The notes beneath the pieces are model-generated. The model saw only the letters and a list, made by a program, of their open reading frames with translations. It had not been told where the DNA came from and made no database searches. A DNA stretch of 64,000 nucleotides from a virus, in IMG/VR virus record IMGVR_UViG_3300031111_000011, positions 1-64,000 of that record; one strand, given 5' to 3'. Positions 1 to 64,000 of this stretch are shown piece by piece (position 1 is the stretch's first letter; every line of letters starts with the position of its first letter). Position numbers and translations under genes: made by a program.

Positions 1-370
1 GCAGGAGGGATCTTTGATCCCGTATGCCAGAATGGTGAACGAAAGTACCCCCAAGGTACTTTCGAATCACCTATGAAACTAATATACTAATAAACCCAGT
101 TCTTCAGGAACTGGGTTATTTTTTTTGAAAAAAATAATATTATATTTTCTATTAGAGAACCCCTTTAGGGGTTCTAATAAATAATATTTAGTATTAATAG
201 AGCCGCCGCTCTATAAGCGGCGTCTATAGAGCCAACCTACCCCGACCCCCTATTTCCGAGTGTGTGCAGATCTGAGAACCAGTTGCAAAAATTCCGTGTG
301 AGGGTGTATATATACGCCTGAGAACTCGCGGGAGAACTTCGGGGCACCCCCTCCGGGGTGCCCCCCCCAG

Positions 371-400
371 TATCTGACAACATCTGACAGTATCTGACCA
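371..400 (+). repeat. Three direct repeats of TATCTGAC(A) in the ORF-free leader; iteron-like
   Basis: cagTATCTGACAacATCTGACAgTATCTGACc read directly; flanked by GC hairpins (GGGGCACCCC..GGGGTGCCCC at 342-366). Confidence 0.5.
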
Positions 401-859
401 TCCTCATCCTCTCCGCACAAGGTGACTGGGCACCACACTGAGCCACCACTCACCCTGGTCATCATCCTGTACCACTACGACCACACCACACACAACACAC
501 TGAATACATGGCACATACTCACCTCTCACCCTGCGGTATTGTGACCACATTGTGACCTATGGTCCATAGACATCTAAAGGATCGGGAGAAGTGGGTTGTC
601 CTGGTCCTGGTATGGTCCAGGCTAATCACTGCTAATCGTGCGCCCTGGTACGTGAAATCGTATTTCATTATGACATGGCATGTGATGACATTTCACAAAA
701 AGTGTCTCACTATGTGTCTCACTGAGACAACACACCACACTAAGCACCTGATATTACAAGACCCACCTAAGTCACCTACTGGTGACTAATTACCTTCCTG
801 CATTTTATTTCATCTTTTTTGAGAAAAAGAGCATTTGTGAGGAAATCGGAGCTTTTTGT

Positions 860-875
860 GCTCATATCTGAGAAG
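860..875 (+). promoter_or_regulatory. Palindromic motif GCTCATATCTGAGAAG (family TTCTCAnATnTGAGAAG), site 1
   Basis: Imperfect inverted repeat; a second copy lies at 905-921 (TTATCAGACTTGAGAAG). Confidence 0.5.
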
Positions 876-1480
876 ACACACCAAAAACCGGTCCTAATCG
901 GGTCTTATCAGACTTGAGAAGTTGAGTGGGGTTGCGTATAACCAAGCCACGTTGTGAGGGAAACCACAACGGACACGGCGCAAGCCACGTCGCTCTTTTA
1001 CATAGAAGGCCACACGGGATGAGAGGCACAGGGGAAACGGTGCCAGCGAGTAAACCCCATCAATAACATCTCACCTCGTGGCGATGACAAAGATCGGCAG
1101 GGATTTCCCCTGGGGAACGGCTACCCGTCAAGGTCTACTTACTCAAGCCTCAACTTGAGACGCCCAAAATAGTGGCTACGTAGATAAACGGTTAGGGCCG
1201 AGAGCCCAAACGATAACAAAACACACTCAACACGACTCACCATAGCTTGCTTACGGAAAAGTAAGGGATGCGGATGGTGGCAAGTTACTTGCCTTAATAT
1301 CCATTGAAAGCGTCATCCATCGGAAAAGTACGGGCTTCCTGGTGAGTTGTCTCTCCTCTGCTCTCTCATTGGAACATAGAACGGCGTCCCTTTTCATCCC
1401 TTGACATGGTTTCGACTAGGTCATGCGGACAGGATATCACGCCTCGTCGGTCCTTTCGAGGGAGTTGAGGGGAAACCAAA

Positions 1481-1510
1481 GCCCACCATTTAGGTGGTGG
1501 GCTCTGTTTT
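1481..1510 (+). terminator. Rho-independent terminator closing the ORF-free region
   Basis: GCCCACCA-tttagg-TGGTGGGC stem followed by tctgtttt. Confidence 0.6.
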
Positions 1511-1541
1511 CCCTTCAACCTAAGCACAAGGAGCACAGACT

Positions 1542-1847
1542 ATGAAAAAAACTGAACTCTACTTTGGCATGGAAGTCCACGGACGGGATGATGTTACCGA
1601 AGATGAATTCAACGAATTCCTGGAGAGGCATGTCTCCCCTGCTTTTCCTGACGGCCTGACCGTTACCGATGCGCAAGGCCAATGGCTTTCACCCGTGGCT
1701 GGTCTGGTCAAGGAAGGCTCGAAGATCCTGATTCTGCTCCACGATGGCGCGGACAACGCCATTGAATCCATCCGCAATATTTACAAAGCTCTCTTTGCTC
1801 AGGACAGCGTCCTTCGCATTGATCATGCCGTCAACGTCTCTTTCTAA
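1542..1847 (+). CDS. hypothetical protein (101 aa)
   Basis: ORF with AAGGAG RBS 8 nt upstream; first gene of + arm. Confidence 0.6.
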   Translation: MKKTELYFGMEVHGRDDVTEDEFNEFLERHVSPAFPDGLTVTDAQGQWLSPVAGLVKEGSKILILLHDGADNAIESIRNIYKALFAQDSVLRIDHAVNVSF

Positions 1848-7248: not shown

Positions 7249-8028
7249 ATGGAAAAACTCAGAGAGGCAATGTCCAAGGTGCTACGAGACGTAGGCGAAG
7301 GGTACGAACTGTTCTTGCTGGTTACTTACCACAGTCAGACCACTGGGGTCACCATCTTGGACAAGGATCTGACCATCCTCTGGTACAACCCATATGTCCA
7401 AAAATACTTTGGCCTTGAGTTCATTAACACTAATTACCTTGACAGGTTTCCTGGGGAGCAGAGAGAGGCCACGAAGAGTCAACTGCGGCAAGCAGAAAGG
7501 ACCGGGGTCAGTGATCCTGCGCTCCTTCAGCCCCCAGGTGTTGAGATGGTTGTCGAAAGGCGCATCTGGGCAGTCTCAGGCGGGTACATCGCCGCATCCT
7601 ACGACCACACCGTACTCACTCAAGCAGAACAACGCACCAAGGATGTACAGACCACACTGACCCTCTTAGCTGAGGCGCGGGAGGGGCTGATACGGGATGC
7701 CCAACTCAAGACACTGGATATGATGGAAACTCACTGCAAGGCAATCTGCGGCAAATATGGGAACCGAAGCCCGTATGAGTGCAAGTCGAGAAAGAAAGTG
7801 CTGGCTGAGATCCTGGCAGGTAGGCCCAGGCTCCAGACCACACTCACTGACACTGAACTGGAGGTGGCTCGGCTCTACCAAGCGGGTCATCGGAGAAAGG
7901 AGGTTGCCGAGATCCTCGATGTGTCTGAGCATACGGTAAAAAATCATAGTACCTCCATCAGAAAAAAGCTTGGCATGAACAACCCAAGTGTGTCCCTTAT
8001 TGAGTATCTTCAACGGTTTACCTTATAG
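7249..8028 (+). CDS. PAS-like sensor + LuxR/GerE-type HTH transcriptional regulator (VqmA-like architecture)
   Basis: C-terminal LTDTELEVARLYQAGHRRKEVAEILDVSEHTVKNHSTSIRKKLG is a LuxR/FixJ-type HTH; N-terminal ~120 aa has a PAS-like pattern; own promoter and own transcription unit. Confidence 0.7.
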   Translation: MEKLREAMSKVLRDVGEGYELFLLVTYHSQTTGVTILDKDLTILWYNPYVQKYFGLEFINTNYLDRFPGEQREATKSQLRQAERTGVSDPALLQPPGVEMVVERRIWAVSGGYIAASYDHTVLTQAEQRTKDVQTTLTLLAEAREGLIRDAQLKTLDMMETHCKAICGKYGNRSPYECKSRKKVLAEILAGRPRLQTTLTDTELEVARLYQAGHRRKEVAEILDVSEHTVKNHSTSIRKKLGMNNPSVSLIEYLQRFTL

Positions 8029-8905: not shown

Positions 8906-8923
8906 CTTCTCATATCTAAGAAG
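8906..8923 (+). promoter_or_regulatory. Palindromic motif CTTCTCATATCTAAGAAG, site 2
   Basis: Directly between terminator T-run and AAGGAGG RBS. Confidence 0.5.
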
Positions 8924-12774: not shown

Positions 12775-12794
12775 AAAAAATCGGGTTTCACCCC

Positions 12795-12824
12795 TTGACA
12801 ACTTACCAGATGTGATTATATTAT
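12795..12824 (+). promoter_or_regulatory. Near-consensus sigma70 promoter (TTGACA .. TATATT/TATTAT)
   Basis: TTGACA at 12795-12800, then a 16-18 nt spacer and an AT-rich -10. Confidence 0.55.
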
Positions 12825-12854
12825 ATCTGGTTTCGGGAAATAGTAATTAACTAA

Positions 12855-12881
12855 CAGACCCTTGAGGGTCTGTGTTTTTTT
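12855..12881 (+). terminator. Rho-independent terminator ~45 nt downstream of the sigma70 promoter
   Basis: CAGACCCT-tg-AGGGTCTG followed by tgttttttt. Confidence 0.65.
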
Positions 12882-12890
12882 ACCTTCAAC

Positions 12891-12907
12891 TTATCAAATC
12901 TGAGAAC
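12891..12907 (+). promoter_or_regulatory. Palindromic motif TTATCAAATCTGAGAAC, site 3 (preceded by TACC)
   Basis: Sits between the terminator T-run and the AAGGAGG RBS of the 12918 gene. Confidence 0.5.
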
Positions 12908-12917
12908 AAGGAGGATT

Positions 12918-13223
12918 ATGAAAGAGTGTAACCGTTGCGGGAACCGGGAGTGTGACTTCATTCACGCTCCCAAGGAGCCGAAGGGCAAACCCAAAATGAG
13001 CTTTCCGAAGCTCCGGAAAGCCCCTCCAAAGGGGATCGCCCATGTTATGGGGCTTCCGTGCCCCATTTGGCGAAAAATCGACCCGATGCACAACCCTCTG
13101 TGGGAGAACCTGGACTCGGCCACCATCGTCAAGCTCCGGGATCTGCGGAAGGGGCTCGGCACACAGCGAAAAAACAAGGAGTGGAAAGGAGGCAAGAAGC
13201 GTAAACTTTGGAAAAACAGGTAG
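12918..13223 (+). CDS. zinc-ribbon, basic protein (101 aa)
   Basis: CAAGGAGG RBS; CNRCGNRECDF. Confidence 0.55.
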   Translation: MKECNRCGNRECDFIHAPKEPKGKPKMSFPKLRKAPPKGIAHVMGLPCPIWRKIDPMHNPLWENLDSATIVKLRDLRKGLGTQRKNKEWKGGKKRKLWKNR

Positions 13224-14447: not shown

Positions 14448-14466
14448 ACTTCTCACATTTGAGCAT
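14448..14466 (+). promoter_or_regulatory. Palindromic motif ACTTCTCACATTTGAGCAT, site 4
   Basis: Follows a T-run after the helicase stop, precedes AAGGAGAG RBS. Confidence 0.45.
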
Positions 14467-18179: not shown

Positions 18180-18196
18180 CATTCTCAAATCTGAGA
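18180..18196 (+). promoter_or_regulatory. Palindromic motif TTCTCAAATCTGAGAAG, site 5
   Basis: After the DNA polymerase stop and a T-run, before AAAGGAGG RBS. Confidence 0.5.
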
Positions 18197-18209
18197 AGAA
18201 AGGAGGTGT

Positions 18210-36106: not shown

Positions 36107-36124
36107 CTGCTCACATCTGAGAAG
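36107..36124 (+). promoter_or_regulatory. Palindromic motif CTGCTCACATCTGAGAAG, site 7 (preceded by TACC)
   Basis: In the 250-bp non-coding gap between integrase and morphogenesis module. Confidence 0.45.
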
Positions 36125-36173
36125 CTCGATTCGTTACCCCTGCGTCCAGAACCACTCACTCTAATTTACTCAA

Positions 36174-36212
36174 TAAAAAAAGGGACATAGCCTATAATTT
36201 GGCTATGTCCCT
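36174..36212 (-). terminator. Rho-independent terminator ending the late (-) operon
   Basis: - strand: AGGGACATAGCC-loop-GGCTATGTCCCT followed by TTTTTTT. Confidence 0.65.
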
Positions 36213-36244
36213 CGTGTGTGTTTGTGACCTATAGGTGACTTTAG

Positions 36245-62076: not shown

Positions 62077-62151
62077 TGGAAGGGGCAGAAGGAATCGAAC
62101 CTTCCTGCACAGGTTCAAAGCCTGTTGGTTAAGCCGCTCACCCATACCCCT
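62077..62151 (-). tRNA. tRNA-Gln(UUG)
   Basis: Hand-folded: acceptor AGGGGTA/TGCCCCT, anticodon stem ACAGG/CCTGT, loop CUUUGAA, T-loop TTCGATT, encoded CCA. Confidence 0.55.
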
Positions 62152-62157
62152 ATAAGC

Positions 62158-62231
62158 TGGTCAGGGATGCTGGAATCGAACCAGCCGCCCCAAGCTTCCA
62201 AAGCCCAGGAGACTCCTTGCCGTTATCCCTG
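62158..62231 (-). tRNA. tRNA-Pro(UGG), tentative
   Basis: 7-bp acceptor, T-arm GCTGG/TTCGATT/CCAGC, loop UUUGGAA; anticodon stem has three G.U pairs. Confidence 0.45.
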
Positions 62232-62243
62232 ATGATTTGCAGA

Positions 62244-62318
62244 TGGCTCCAGAACCTGGACTCGAACCAGGATTTCAACGGTTAACAGCCGCGCGTGTTA
62301 CCTTGACACTATTCTGGA
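62244..62318 (-). tRNA. tRNA-Asn(GUU)
   Basis: Acceptor TCCAGAA/TTCTGGA, D-stem GTGT/ACAC, loop CUGUUAA, T-arm CCTGG/TTCGAGT/CCAGG, CCA. Confidence 0.6.
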
Positions 62319-62329
62319 GTGAGGAGAGA

Positions 62330-62406
62330 TGGTTGGAGCGAGAGGATTCGAACCCCCACTTAACGGGTTAAAAGCCCGTTGTGCTAACCGTTGACACTAC
62401 GCTCCA
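62330..62406 (-). tRNA. tRNA-Lys(UUU)
   Basis: Acceptor TGGAGCG/CGCTCCA, anticodon stem ACGGG/CCCGT, loop CUUUUAA, CCA. Confidence 0.65.
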
Positions 62407-62416
62407 ACAAAAAAGA

Positions 62417-62493
62417 TGGTCGCACCACCAGGACTCAAACCTGGGTCTGTCGCTTATCAGGCAACTGTTCTAATCTGTTGAACTATGGTGCAA
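62417..62493 (-). tRNA. tRNA-Ile(GAU)
   Basis: D-stem GTTC/GAAC, anticodon stem GTTGC/GCGAC, loop CUGAUAA, T-arm CCAGG/TTTGAGT/CCTGG, CCA. Confidence 0.65.
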
Positions 62494-62495
62494 TG

Positions 62496-62570
62496 TGGCA
62501 CCCCGCTAAGGAATCGAACCCTACCAATGCACCGGGTTGGAACCGGGCCGCACCCATGTGCTGCGAGGTG
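62496..62570 (-). tRNA. tRNA-Trp(CCA), tentative
   Basis: Acceptor and T-arm fold; loop UUCCAAC; short D-loop. Confidence 0.45.
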
Positions 62571-62583
62571 TGAGATGTAGAAA

Positions 62584-62690
62584 TGGGGTGAGCGGAGGGA
62601 ATCGAACCCTCTACAACAGGGCCACGACCTGTCGGCTCAACCTTTTGCTCTTCGCCCACAGTTGGACCACTCACTAAGAGTGGCTCACCC
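62584..62690 (-). tRNA. atypical long tRNA-like element (91-106 nt)
   Basis: Canonical T-arm GAGGG/TTCGATT/CCCTC plus acceptor and CCA, 9-bp terminal stem; no regular anticodon arm found by eye. Confidence 0.3.
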
Positions 62691-62697
62691 CACGAAA

Positions 62698-62797
62698 TGG
62701 ACGATGACCGTGGGACTCGAACCCACGCTCCCAAGAGGTGTCTCCCGGCGATCAACCCGTAACTGCCCCCCAGTGTGTTATCCAGCTACACCAGACA
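62698..62797 (-). tRNA. atypical long tRNA-like element (~100 nt)
   Basis: Acceptor CGATGTC/GTCATCG, D-arm GTGT-AGCTGGATA-ACAC, T-arm GTGGG/TTCGAGT/CCCAC, CCA; 49-nt middle lacks a canonical anticodon hairpin. Confidence 0.3.
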
Positions 62798-62808
62798 TCG
62801 ATATTTGT

Positions 62809-62883
62809 TGGTACTCCCTGATGGAATCGAACCACCCTCTACTGCTTGTAAGGCAGTCGTTATAGCCACTCTACTAAGGGAGT
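62809..62883 (-). tRNA. tRNA-Val(UAC)
   Basis: Acceptor ACTCCCT/AGGGAGT, anticodon stem ACTGC/GCAGT, loop CUUACAA, CCA. Confidence 0.55.
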
Positions 62884-62954
62884 ATGTGCCGGTGGCAGTG
62901 ATTAACGACCTTTGCTCTTATCATCGGGACGGTCATGCGAGGACCGGCAGAAAA

Positions 62955-63028
62955 TGGACTCCCTGAGAGGATTCGAACCTCCATCCAACGGTTCGTAGCC
63001 GAATGCTCATCCGTTGAGCTACAGGGAG
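62955..63028 (-). tRNA. tRNA-Arg(ACG)
   Basis: Acceptor CTCCCTG/CAGGGAG, D-stem GCTC/GAGC, loop CUACGAA, T-arm GGAGG/TTCGAAT/CCTCT, CCA. Confidence 0.55.
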
Positions 63029-63034
63029 TGAGTT

Positions 63035-63075
63035 GGTTTTGCCCTAAAAATAGGGGCGTTTTTGTGGCAAAACTA
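63035..63075. other. Nested hairpin spacer inside the tRNA array
   Basis: GTTTTGCC..GCCCTaaaaatAGGGGC..GGCAAAAC, read directly. Confidence 0.4.
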
Positions 63076-63151
63076 TGGTCTGCCTGGGAGGAGTCGAACC
63101 CCCTACTCTGGGGGTAGAAACCCCAAGCTCTGTCCGATGAGCTACAGGCAG
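63076..63151 (-). tRNA. tRNA-Arg(UCU)
   Basis: Acceptor CTGCCTG/CAGGCAG, D-stem GCTC/GAGC, anticodon stem TGGGG/CCCCA, loop UUUCUAC, CCA. Confidence 0.65.
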
Positions 63152-63156
63152 TGAAG

Positions 63157-63231
63157 TGGAGCCTCGTGGAGGACTTGAACCCCCGTCCCAAGCTTACAAG
63201 GCACGTATTCTACCAGTTGAACTAACGAGGC
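63157..63231 (-). tRNA. tRNA-Thr(UGU)
   Basis: Acceptor GCCTCGT/ACGAGGC, loop CUUGUAA, T-arm with TTCAAGT loop, CCA. Confidence 0.6.
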
Positions 63232-63238
63232 AAAGAAG

Positions 63239-63312
63239 TGGAGCGGTCACCAGGAATCGAACCTGGATCTGCCATCGGGGAGACAGCTATGCTACCATTA
63301 CACCATGACTGC
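63239..63312 (-). tRNA. tRNA-Gly (CCC or UCC), tentative
   Basis: T-arm CCAGG/TTCGATT/CCTGG; acceptor has one A-C mismatch; loop CUCCCCG. Confidence 0.4.
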
Positions 63313-63323
63313 TCAAAAATTGA

Positions 63324-63400
63324 TGGAGCGGATACAGGGACTCGAACCCTGACCATCTGGTTGGAAGCCAGATATGCTTGCCGTTGAACACCATACCCGC
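63324..63400 (-). tRNA. tRNA-Gly(UCC)
   Basis: Acceptor GCGGGTA/TATCCGC, anticodon stem TCTGG/CCAGA, loop CUUCCAA, CCA. Confidence 0.6.
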
Positions 63401-63403
63401 TCA

Positions 63404-63489
63404 GTGAGCCAAGGGGAGACTCGAACTCCCAAACCTTCCAGATCAGGGCCATGGTGACCTGGATATGCACCCTATACACCAGCTTGGCG
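63404..63489 (-). tRNA. atypical class-II-sized tRNA-like element (~86 nt)
   Basis: T-arm GGGAG/TTCGAGT/CTCCC and 6-bp acceptor; internal 8-bp hairpin CCAGGTCA/TGATCTGG; no encoded CCA; anticodon arm not resolved. Confidence 0.3.
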
Positions 63490-63496
63490 TGTTCGA

Positions 63497-63572
63497 TGGT
63501 GGACCAAGAGGGACTCGAACCCTCAGCGTCCTCCTTGCAAGGGAGGAGTGTTCCCGATTACACCACCGGCCC
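63497..63572 (-). tRNA. tRNA-Ala(UGC)
   Basis: D-stem GTGT/ACAC with loop AATCGGGA, anticodon stem CCTCC/GGAGG, loop CUUGCAA, T-arm GAGGG/TTCGAGT/CCCTC, CCA; acceptor has three G.U pairs. Confidence 0.65.
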
Positions 63573-63661
63573 ACAGGACAGATTTCCTTTTTGACGTCTT
63601 GGGCCAGGAATACTGTCTAAGAACCCAATGGAACCACAGGGGTATCTCCCCATGGCGGTTT

Positions 63662-63735
63662 TGGCGGTCCATACGGGACTCGAACCCGTCTTGCATGATC
63701 GACAGTCACGCACCTTCCCTGATGGCTAATGGACC
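63662..63735 (-). tRNA. tRNA-Asp(GUC)
   Basis: Acceptor GGTCCAT/ATGGACC, anticodon stem CGTGA/TCATG, loop CUGUCGA, T-arm ACGGG/TTCGAGT/CCCGT, CCA. Confidence 0.65.
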
Positions 63736-64000
63736 GAAAATGTTACCCTGTGTAAAACTCCTCCGCGTTTCCATGGTCACCAGAGGAGAAAACCCGGTCG
63801 CACAGGGGTATCGAAGACTCCGGGTTTTGGCTTATGGCTCGACTCAGGGGAGTTTCACCCCCACACTCTATGGTCACTTTGTCTGACCAGGACCAGGGAC
63901 TTCCATTGGAGTGTTTAAGCAGTGAGCGGTCTTACGGTCATCCGCACTGCGAGTCGCATATGCTTGCTCTCCACTCATAGCGAGAATACTTACAACCATT

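Follow-up and report, generated by a model that had tools for sequence, protein, structure and literature searches.

Introduction

The left end of the T7 genome comprises a terminal repeat with a CCCCC/GGGGG dyad, short repeats, the host promoters A1-A3, the R0.3 hairpin as RNase III site, and gene 0.3 at position 925. In N4-like and LUZ24-like podophages, terminal repeats are located at the divergence of two gene arms. The cos region of lambda consists of the cosN dyad followed by the cosB repeats, and P1 and SPP1 have pac sites. The pR'-6S-tR' segment of lambda is a promoter-leader-terminator unit which is read through by antitermination.

Here we describe an ORF-free region in the 66.9-kb genome of a lytic podophage that is rich in tRNA genes and belongs to a family without cultured representatives. 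The DNA analysed is a stretch of 64,000 nucleotides, referred to as the window, and coordinates are those of the window unless given for the locus L001. Our best reading is that of a phage early control region, which is an element of an ordinary kind, from a lineage not described before.

Materials and methods

The DUF3574 gene at window positions 1542-1847 is carried by the public contig k141_1898663 (ENA ERZ27252236; 67,073 bp). Subtraction of the 141-bp k-mer overlap yields 66,932 bp, and the genome assembles as a collapsed circle of this length, made up of the 64,000-bp window and 2,932 missing bases. L001 is a 20.3-kb stretch of k141_1898663 around the DUF3574 gene, which bridges the right end of the window to its left end; window position x corresponds to L001 x+8459 and window position 64000 to L001 5527. 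A protein index lists a contig of 67,101 bp for the same phage. Its excess of 169 bp over the circle differs from the 141-bp k-mer overlap on the ENA contig.

The TerL protein has hundreds of metagenomic homologues with 50-62% identity on contigs of 60-67 kb. Loci were obtained via the contigs of TerL homologues and via a Ro60/TROVE gene carried by several relatives. The informative relatives were L002, L092, L093 and L096, in which TerL is 57-62% identical to that of this phage. As anchors, the DUF3574 gene and a 68-aa ORF yielded nothing in IMG/VR and mostly bacterial or short-contig matches in the protein search. TerL searches of IMG/VR and the metagenome collection returned few loci reaching the region, and two DNA-pattern scans of IMG/VR for the conserved site described below gave no match. 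Some TerL homologues of the family (P0009, P0010, P0117) are 795-838 aa long and contain intein/Hint or homing-endonuclease domains (PF14890, PF14528).

Results

Position of the region on the genome

An earlier note on this DNA had described the ORF-free stretch as a left region. This is a cutting artefact: the start of the window is arbitrary because the genome assembles as a circle, and on the circular map the ORF-free stretch extends 102 bp further leftward. Its full length is 1,644 bp (L001 8357-10000), and it leads into a divergent promoter pair and a tRNA cluster. Two back-to-back sigma-70 promoters, each with 11/12 consensus positions, lie just left of the window at L001 8022-8117. The leftward promoter (L001 8049-8022) is directed toward a short hairpin with a T-run, a palindrome copy and the tRNA genes, and the rightward promoter (L001 8090-8117) toward the 68-aa ORF (L001 8150-8356). 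The proximity of a tRNA cluster had been correctly anticipated, as the circular map demonstrates. The cluster is oriented leftward, extends from window position 62,077 to L001 7947, and lies 0.5 kb to the left; at least 18 of its genes exceed the Rfam threshold, and three more are weaker. Between the tRNA genes of the cluster (window 62077-64000, L001 3600-7950) there are four small ORFs and several structured non-tRNA stretches of 90-180 nt, e.g. at L001 5280-5460, 5850-5985 and 6830-6925.

Two gene arms diverge at the ORF-free region and converge at approximately 36 kb. The rightward arm (1.5-36 kb) encodes a DnaB-like helicase, a family A polymerase, RNR, ligase and NAMPT, and the leftward arm (62-36 kb) encodes terS/TerL, an SU10-type portal, the capsid and a 2235-aa LPD38 virion protein. 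Both cumulative skews, GC and AT, change direction here: their minima fall at 2.5 kb and 23 bp, and their maxima close to 34 kb; this turn is confounded with the switch in transcription direction. The best cultured relatives of TerL are approximately 32% identical, and the protein is not T7-, N4- or Kuravirus-like. Several records of these cultured relatives open at the terminase gene, which hints weakly at permuted headful genomes without fixed ends.

Order of parts in five phages

In all four relatives the corresponding position is free of called genes over 1.1-2.4 kb, with the parts in the same order: terminator hairpins, an AT-rich block, a single-copy site, phage-specific repeats, a sigma-70-type promoter, a 5' hairpin, a leader of 0.3-0.9 kb and the first early gene. 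DNA similarity between the five regions is almost nil outside short islands, and the first early gene is a different one in every phage. In this order a leftward promoter, CTTGACAAA...TTAATGCTTATAT, precedes the AT-rich block. A second copy of this conserved promoter sequence (TAAGCACTAAACGGGATTTGTCAAG) was found at 1026-1050 of L096, within the early-gene arm. The conserved site, the repeats and the promoter/leader of L092 are located 4 kb from the divergent promoter and terS, and they therefore constitute a module of their own.

Several relatives carry RNA elements elsewhere on their loci. Their Ro60/TROVE gene is preceded by two to four Y-RNA-like modules with the RNA sequence 5'-GGCAGUGAG...GGGUUACUUCG-3' (L002 4600-5080, L093 9330-9930, L096 9650-9930, L095 560-830), and some of these modules hold a tRNA-like domain, the match of which to the tRNA model is confined to positions 6-65. 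The window contains no such module; the phage studied here and L092 are devoid of both the Ro60/TROVE gene and the Y-RNA-like modules.

Coding content, base composition and repeats

The absence of a credible ORF in 1-1541 was borne out. The longest ORFs encode 76 aa (559-789, plus strand) as well as 71 and 70 aa (minus strand); they had no match in a PHROG search and no peptide counterpart among the regions of the five phages, and no gene is called in the ORF-free stretch on the public contig. A blastn search of 1-1600 against annotated phages was likewise without a match. Given the PHROG and peptide results, a hidden gene was rejected as an explanation; a peptide match of the form RGxGxxxPASKxH reached only E=0.04, and the ORF of this phage ends directly after the match. 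The GC content, given as ~55% in the earlier note, is 48.0% over 1-1540. The stretch of ~600 nt thought to be GC-rich does not stand out either, since the 51.4% GC of 901-1540 equals the genome mean of 51.9%.

The hairpins and repeats seen by the earlier note were recovered. Six distinct perfect hairpins are located at 40-64, 93-117, 116-137, 156-175, 341-364 and 1480-1503, three direct repeats at 371-398, and duplicated motifs at 538-557, 621-637 and 702-722. Hairpins with stems of at least 8 bp gave 12 counts, whereas dinucleotide shuffles yielded 0.10 and no other window of 1540 nt exceeded 4, and close direct repeats gave 10 k-mer counts compared to 0.48 in shuffles.

These numbers bear on the possibility that the region is mostly neutral spacer, i.e. 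rapidly drifting intergenic DNA that separates two transcription units and has no relevant elements other than promoters and terminators. The near-complete lack of primary-sequence conservation outside short islands is compatible with drift, as are the phage-specific repeats and hairpin stems. Phage genomes are compact, yet five phages retain ORF-free DNA of this length here with the same order of parts, the hairpins and phased repeats are ~20- to 100-fold above chance, and the single-copy site is conserved. We therefore consider a neutral spacer very improbable.

The DNA module at 116-860

The window opens with the 3' tail (1-125, plus strand) of a short early unit that begins off-window with the rightward sigma-70 promoter and the 68-aa ORF. 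It contains the hairpin at 40-64 and a predicted intrinsic terminator, the hairpin at 93-117 followed by T8 to position 125. An AT-rich block with 33-38% GC follows at 116-235; it comprises an A/T palindrome (116-137), the perfect hairpin AGAACCCC-TTT-AGGGGTTCT (156-175) and a GC hairpin (198-228) with palindromes of the TCTATAGA type on either side. At the position matching this block the relatives have CCCC-loop-GGGG hairpins, with the general form NNNCCCC-loop-GGGGNNN and phage-specific stems.

The single-copy site (285-368) is conserved in the five phages. It consists of an A-tract, TTCCGTGTG and TGTATATATAC (285-316), the GC dyad GGGGCACCCC/GGGGTGCCCC (341-364) and a C8 run (361-368). In the five-phage alignment the site appears as an A-tract, (T/G)TYYGTGTG, TGTATAT, a G-rich dyad or repeats, and a run of 7-10 C, and in 4/5 phages it directly follows a terminator-like hairpin. 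The TGTATAT at 305 is the sole intergenic copy in the genome, the remaining copies being within genes. The conserved site is thus a unique cis site and not a promoter class, since TGTATAT occurs in no other intergenic region. A promoter of the phiEco32 phage sigma factor, tAATGTAtA, resembles TGTATAT (PMC8948821). An assignment to this type was rejected, as TGTATAT has a single intergenic copy and does not recur upstream of operons. The perfect hairpins were also considered as N4-type hairpin promoters and rejected because no virion RNA polymerase was found: the 2235-aa protein gave matches to LPD38/DUF7178, and none to an RNA polymerase of solved structure.

Directly after the C-run, (T/C)ATCTGAC is repeated three times with 10-bp phasing (371-398), in an iteron-like manner. 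Further boxes are ATTGTGACC in two copies (538-557), GGTCC(T/A)GG in three copies (about 598-622), GCTAATC in two copies (621-637), GTGTCTCAC in two copies (702-722) and the palindrome TGTCTCAcTGAGACA (715-729). L002 has analogous boxes in the same order, ATTGTAAT twice and GTGTCTCA four times. A C-rich strand bias right of the C-run is confined to this phage and L092 and is for this reason not a conserved property. L092 contains ~500 bp of AT-rich repeated DNA after the site, and L096 a 330-bp block of almost pure AT. The contig ends of the relatives do not cluster and are therefore uninformative with respect to termini.

Among the functions suggested by the earlier note, a genome end or packaging site and a replication origin would both fit a conserved single-copy site that has AT-rich hairpins and phased repeats beside it. 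As an origin of a circularly permuted genome, the module at 116-860 would unwind in its AT block, the hairpins would serve for priming or loading, the repeats would act as iterons for an initiator of the phage, and the flanking promoters would activate the site by transcription. The AT-rich block with its three 10-bp-phased repeats, the AT-rich DNA of L092 and L096, the turn of both cumulative skews where the gene arms diverge, their convergence at ~36 kb, the phage-encoded DnaB-like helicase and family A polymerase, and the hint at headful packaging from the TerL relatives are all consistent with this proposal. It is nevertheless weakened by the lack of DnaA boxes and of an identified initiator protein, by repeats that differ between phages, and by a skew that transcription direction confounds; moreover, in known lytic podophages with two such arms the terminal repeats are located where the arms diverge. 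Taken as an explanation of the module, an origin appears possible, if somewhat doubtful. A concatemer junction or genome end is our first choice on the basis of the T7-like order of parts and the terminal repeats of N4/LUZ24 type at the divergence; an origin would be nearly as likely, and the two are not mutually exclusive.

Predicted early promoter and candidate operator

The early promoters proposed for the region are supported by a candidate at 914-942 on the plus strand. The predicted sigma-70-type promoter TTGAGA (914-919)-17-TATAAC (937-942) matches 10/12 consensus positions, and its 17-nt spacer and the directly following 5'-terminal hairpin align without gaps in 5/5 phages. The relatives have TTGACA-17-TATTTT (L096), TTGACC-17-TATATT (L093), TTGACA-17-AATCTT (L002) and TTGACA-17-AATCAT (L092). 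In TATAAC, the conserved T at the last position of the -10 element is missing, which is why the promoter was not called by a consensus scan. The -10 element is followed by a 7-nt stretch ending in CA in 4/5 phages and then by the hairpin in 5/5. From these positions, transcription is predicted to start near 949.

Two copies of an operon-start palindrome had been reported at 860 and 905. The motif (C)TTCTCA-N4-TGAGAAG is indeed present at 862-875 and 904-921 (plus strand); the latter copy is palindromic. A third, weak copy lies at 266-279. Genome-wide, the operon-start motif TCANATCTGAGAAG has 16 matches compared to 2.8 +/- 1.9 expected. The palindrome at 904-921 overlaps the -35 element of the early promoter, and it could be the operator for a 259-aa LuxR/GerE-type regulator, the gene of which is located at 7249-8028.

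The motif was also observed outside the region. An 18-bp palindrome occurs at 8906-8923, 12890-12907, 18181-18198 and 36107-36124, with another copy at 14449-14462, and in several rightward operons it lies directly between the T-run of a terminator and the Shine-Dalgarno sequence. The operon-start palindrome could function as DNA, as an operator bound by the LuxR/GerE protein, or as RNA, in the form of a hairpin at mRNA 5' ends. Twice (12790-12920; L001 8049-7953) a near-consensus sigma-70 promoter is followed by a transcript of only 25-45 nt, an intrinsic terminator, CTTCTCA-N4-TGAGAAG and genes, an arrangement that looks like promoter-proximal attenuation requiring antitermination or a regulator. 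The copy at 36107-36124 is placed past the last rightward gene, ~70 nt before the bidirectional terminator (36190-36215) at which the arms converge, and 36107-36230 may be a small RNA unit.

The predicted untranslated leader

The predicted leader RNA (949-1541, plus strand) is ~590 nt long and untranslated; the leaders of the relatives measure ~860, 500, 610 and 300 nt. It begins with the 5'-terminal hairpin CGTTGTG-AGGGAAAC-CACAACG (950-971, 7 bp), the counterparts of which are CGCTGGA-GTGA-TTCAGCG in L096 and GCTCGGC-GGGAAAAG-GCCGAGC in L002. This hairpin exhibits compensatory changes. A GNRA hairpin, GGC-GCAA-GCC, follows at 977-986, and a hairpin at 1025-1044 is followed by AGCGAGTAAACCCCA (1045-1059). 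The leader ends in a 26-bp hairpin (1464-1519; -44.7 kcal/mol, z -5.3), the core of which (1480-1503) forms, together with CTGTTTTCCC, a predicted intrinsic terminator. The terminator noted earlier at 1481-1510 was confirmed in the sequence, with the limits 1480-1510. With 93-117 plus T8, it is one of two stretches in which a GC-rich stem-loop is joined to a U-tract. The long terminal hairpin also occurs in L093 (z -3.9) and L092 (z -3.3) and is absent from L002 and L096. For the 26-bp hairpin of this phage, located 22 nt upstream of the first start codon, we infer a role in attenuation; it may also be processed by an RNase III-type enzyme. The Shine-Dalgarno sequence AAGGAG (1528-1533) and the first early gene (1542-1847, plus strand), encoding a 101-aa DUF3574 protein, follow. 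The closest named homologues of this protein are longer Streptomyces proteins, and in L002 and L096 a DUF3574 gene is found a few genes deeper in the early arm.

The earlier note had considered a large ncRNA of the GOLLD, ROOL or HEARO kind. In searches with the models of Rfam 15, only tRNAs reached the gathering score in the window, L001 and the four relatives, and at E<=10 all matches in 1-1700 were far below it, without any large-ncRNA family among them. The best of these sub-threshold matches were rliA, which reached 28.5 of 50 bits within the AT-rich block, and models of microRNA precursors, which matched the terminator hairpin. Global and E-INS-i alignments of the five leaders were uninformative. 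The comparison points to leaders with conserved ends and lineage-specific islands; with leaders that cannot be aligned and vary in length and fold z, a conserved core of the GOLLD/ROOL kind is not supported.

Folding energies were variable. The fold z was -5.8 for this phage (905-1525), -4.9 for L002, -2.6 for L093 and -0.9 for L096, and in 4/4 leaders tested it was lower than that of the antisense strand. The 620-nt windows of this genome had a mean z of -1.9 +/- 2.0; 5/49 other windows reached -4.5 or less, four of which were coding, and coding windows reached z -6.6. A 38-nt block (1021-1059) is common to this phage and L096 with 31/38 identical positions, and none of 500 shuffles was as good; the Gumbel p is ~5e-4 for that pair and ~5e-3 after correction for ten leader pairs. 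The block forms a hairpin with two compensatory pairs (GGCAC/GTGCC vs GGACC/GGTCC), followed by AGCRAGTAAASCCCA. In total, two hairpins have compensatory changes relative to L096, a comparison of two sequences only that was equalled by 127/500 shuffles. The covariance model R1 of the shared 5' module found nothing in L002, L092 and L093. A CsrA/RsmA sponge was rejected as an interpretation, since the 15 GGA motifs compare to 13.2 +/- 2.6 in shuffles and none of the five leaders is enriched.

The leader could accordingly be weighed as a discrete structured early ncRNA (949-1510), made by the host polymerase, ended at the terminator, and representing a fast-evolving, family-specific class that would act on a host target, e.g. 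a defence or RNA-decay factor. The strong folding here and in L002, the consistent difference from the antisense strand, the GNRA/GAAA loops, the promoter-to-terminator unit in this phage and L092, the compensatory pairs of the block common to L096 and of the 5' hairpin, and the maintenance of an ORF-free leader of 0.3-0.9 kb in five phages argue for such an RNA. Against these stand the missing Rfam match, leaders that cannot be aligned and vary ~3-fold in length, the shallow z values of L096 and L093 in a genome with coding windows down to -6.6, a shared-block covariance model that is silent in three relatives, the absence of statistical power with two sequences, and the lack of enrichment of GGA or any other motif. 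On balance we regard this ncRNA as unlikely.

Discussion

The reading we prefer, with about even confidence, is a phage early control region in the style of T7 and N4, in which the DNA module would serve as genome end/packaging junction or as origin and the leader ends at a putatively attenuating hairpin. According to this model, a short unit transcribed by the host would be stopped within positions 1-125 by a strong terminator. The segment 116-860, with its AT-rich hairpin DNA, single-copy site and phased short repeats, would be a cis-acting DNA module, which we take to be the concatemer junction, i.e. the physical ends or the packaging recognition site. The host sigma-70-type promoter at 914-942 would then start an RNA at about 949 that carries a stabilising 5' hairpin, ~560 nt of non-coding sequence and the 26-bp hairpin/terminator, which is separated from the first early gene by 22 nt, and the early genes would be expressed only by read-through or processing at this hairpin. 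Later, a phage regulator bound to the palindromic operator over the -35 element may shut the promoter off. The almost complete lack of sequence conservation in the leader speaks against this explanation.

A bolder proposition for the same transcript is that the first host-made RNA on entry belongs to an undescribed, fast-evolving class of structured ncRNAs of 0.3-0.9 kb with a conserved 5' hairpin and lineage-specific cores, distributed in a family of uncultured tRNA- and Ro60-carrying podophages of 62-67 kb, and that it has a host factor as its target instead of serving only as the leader of the early mRNA. We hold this to be improbable. Should the leader function as an RNA, a new early phage ncRNA would be at hand. 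Under the preferred reading of an early control region, a control hub with promoter, predicted start, terminators, candidate operator and single-copy cis site has been mapped for a phage family without cultured member, and if the cis site corresponds to the genome ends, the true linear map and the packaging mode would be fixed for the whole family.

Of the systems outlined at the beginning, the left end of T7 shares its order of parts with this locus: an ORF-free stretch of ~1 kb with C-run/G-run dyad hairpins, repeats, one or more sigma-70 promoters, a leader, a long hairpin and the first early gene. There is no detectable sequence similarity, however, and TerL, portal and capsid of this phage are not T7-like. 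No phage RNA polymerase was found here, the terminal hairpin has an additional U-tract, and the physical ends are putative. The divergence of two arms from an ORF-free region, their convergence in mid-genome and the tRNA genes beside the divergence resemble N4-like and LUZ24-like phages, whereas the virion RNA polymerase of N4 has no counterpart, the 2235-aa virion protein being an LPD38 polyvalent protein.

The unique GC dyad (341-364) directly before three phased repeats (371-398) is reminiscent of lambda cos and of the pac sites of P1 and SPP1. In contrast to these, the site is not adjacent to the terminase genes, which are located on the other arm at a distance of ~6 kb (4 kb in L092), and no cohesive ends are known for this phage. 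GOLLD, ROOL and HEARO RNAs are similar in size range, phage context and closeness to tRNA genes, but differ in that no Rfam model matches and no core is conserved among the relatives. As in the pR' unit of lambda, a constitutive host promoter would produce a non-coding RNA that ends at a terminator immediately upstream of the genes. Neither a protein resembling Q or N nor a nut or put element was identified in this phage, and its leader is three times longer than that of lambda, whereas shorter versions of the same arrangement are present at 12790-12920 and L001 8049-7953.
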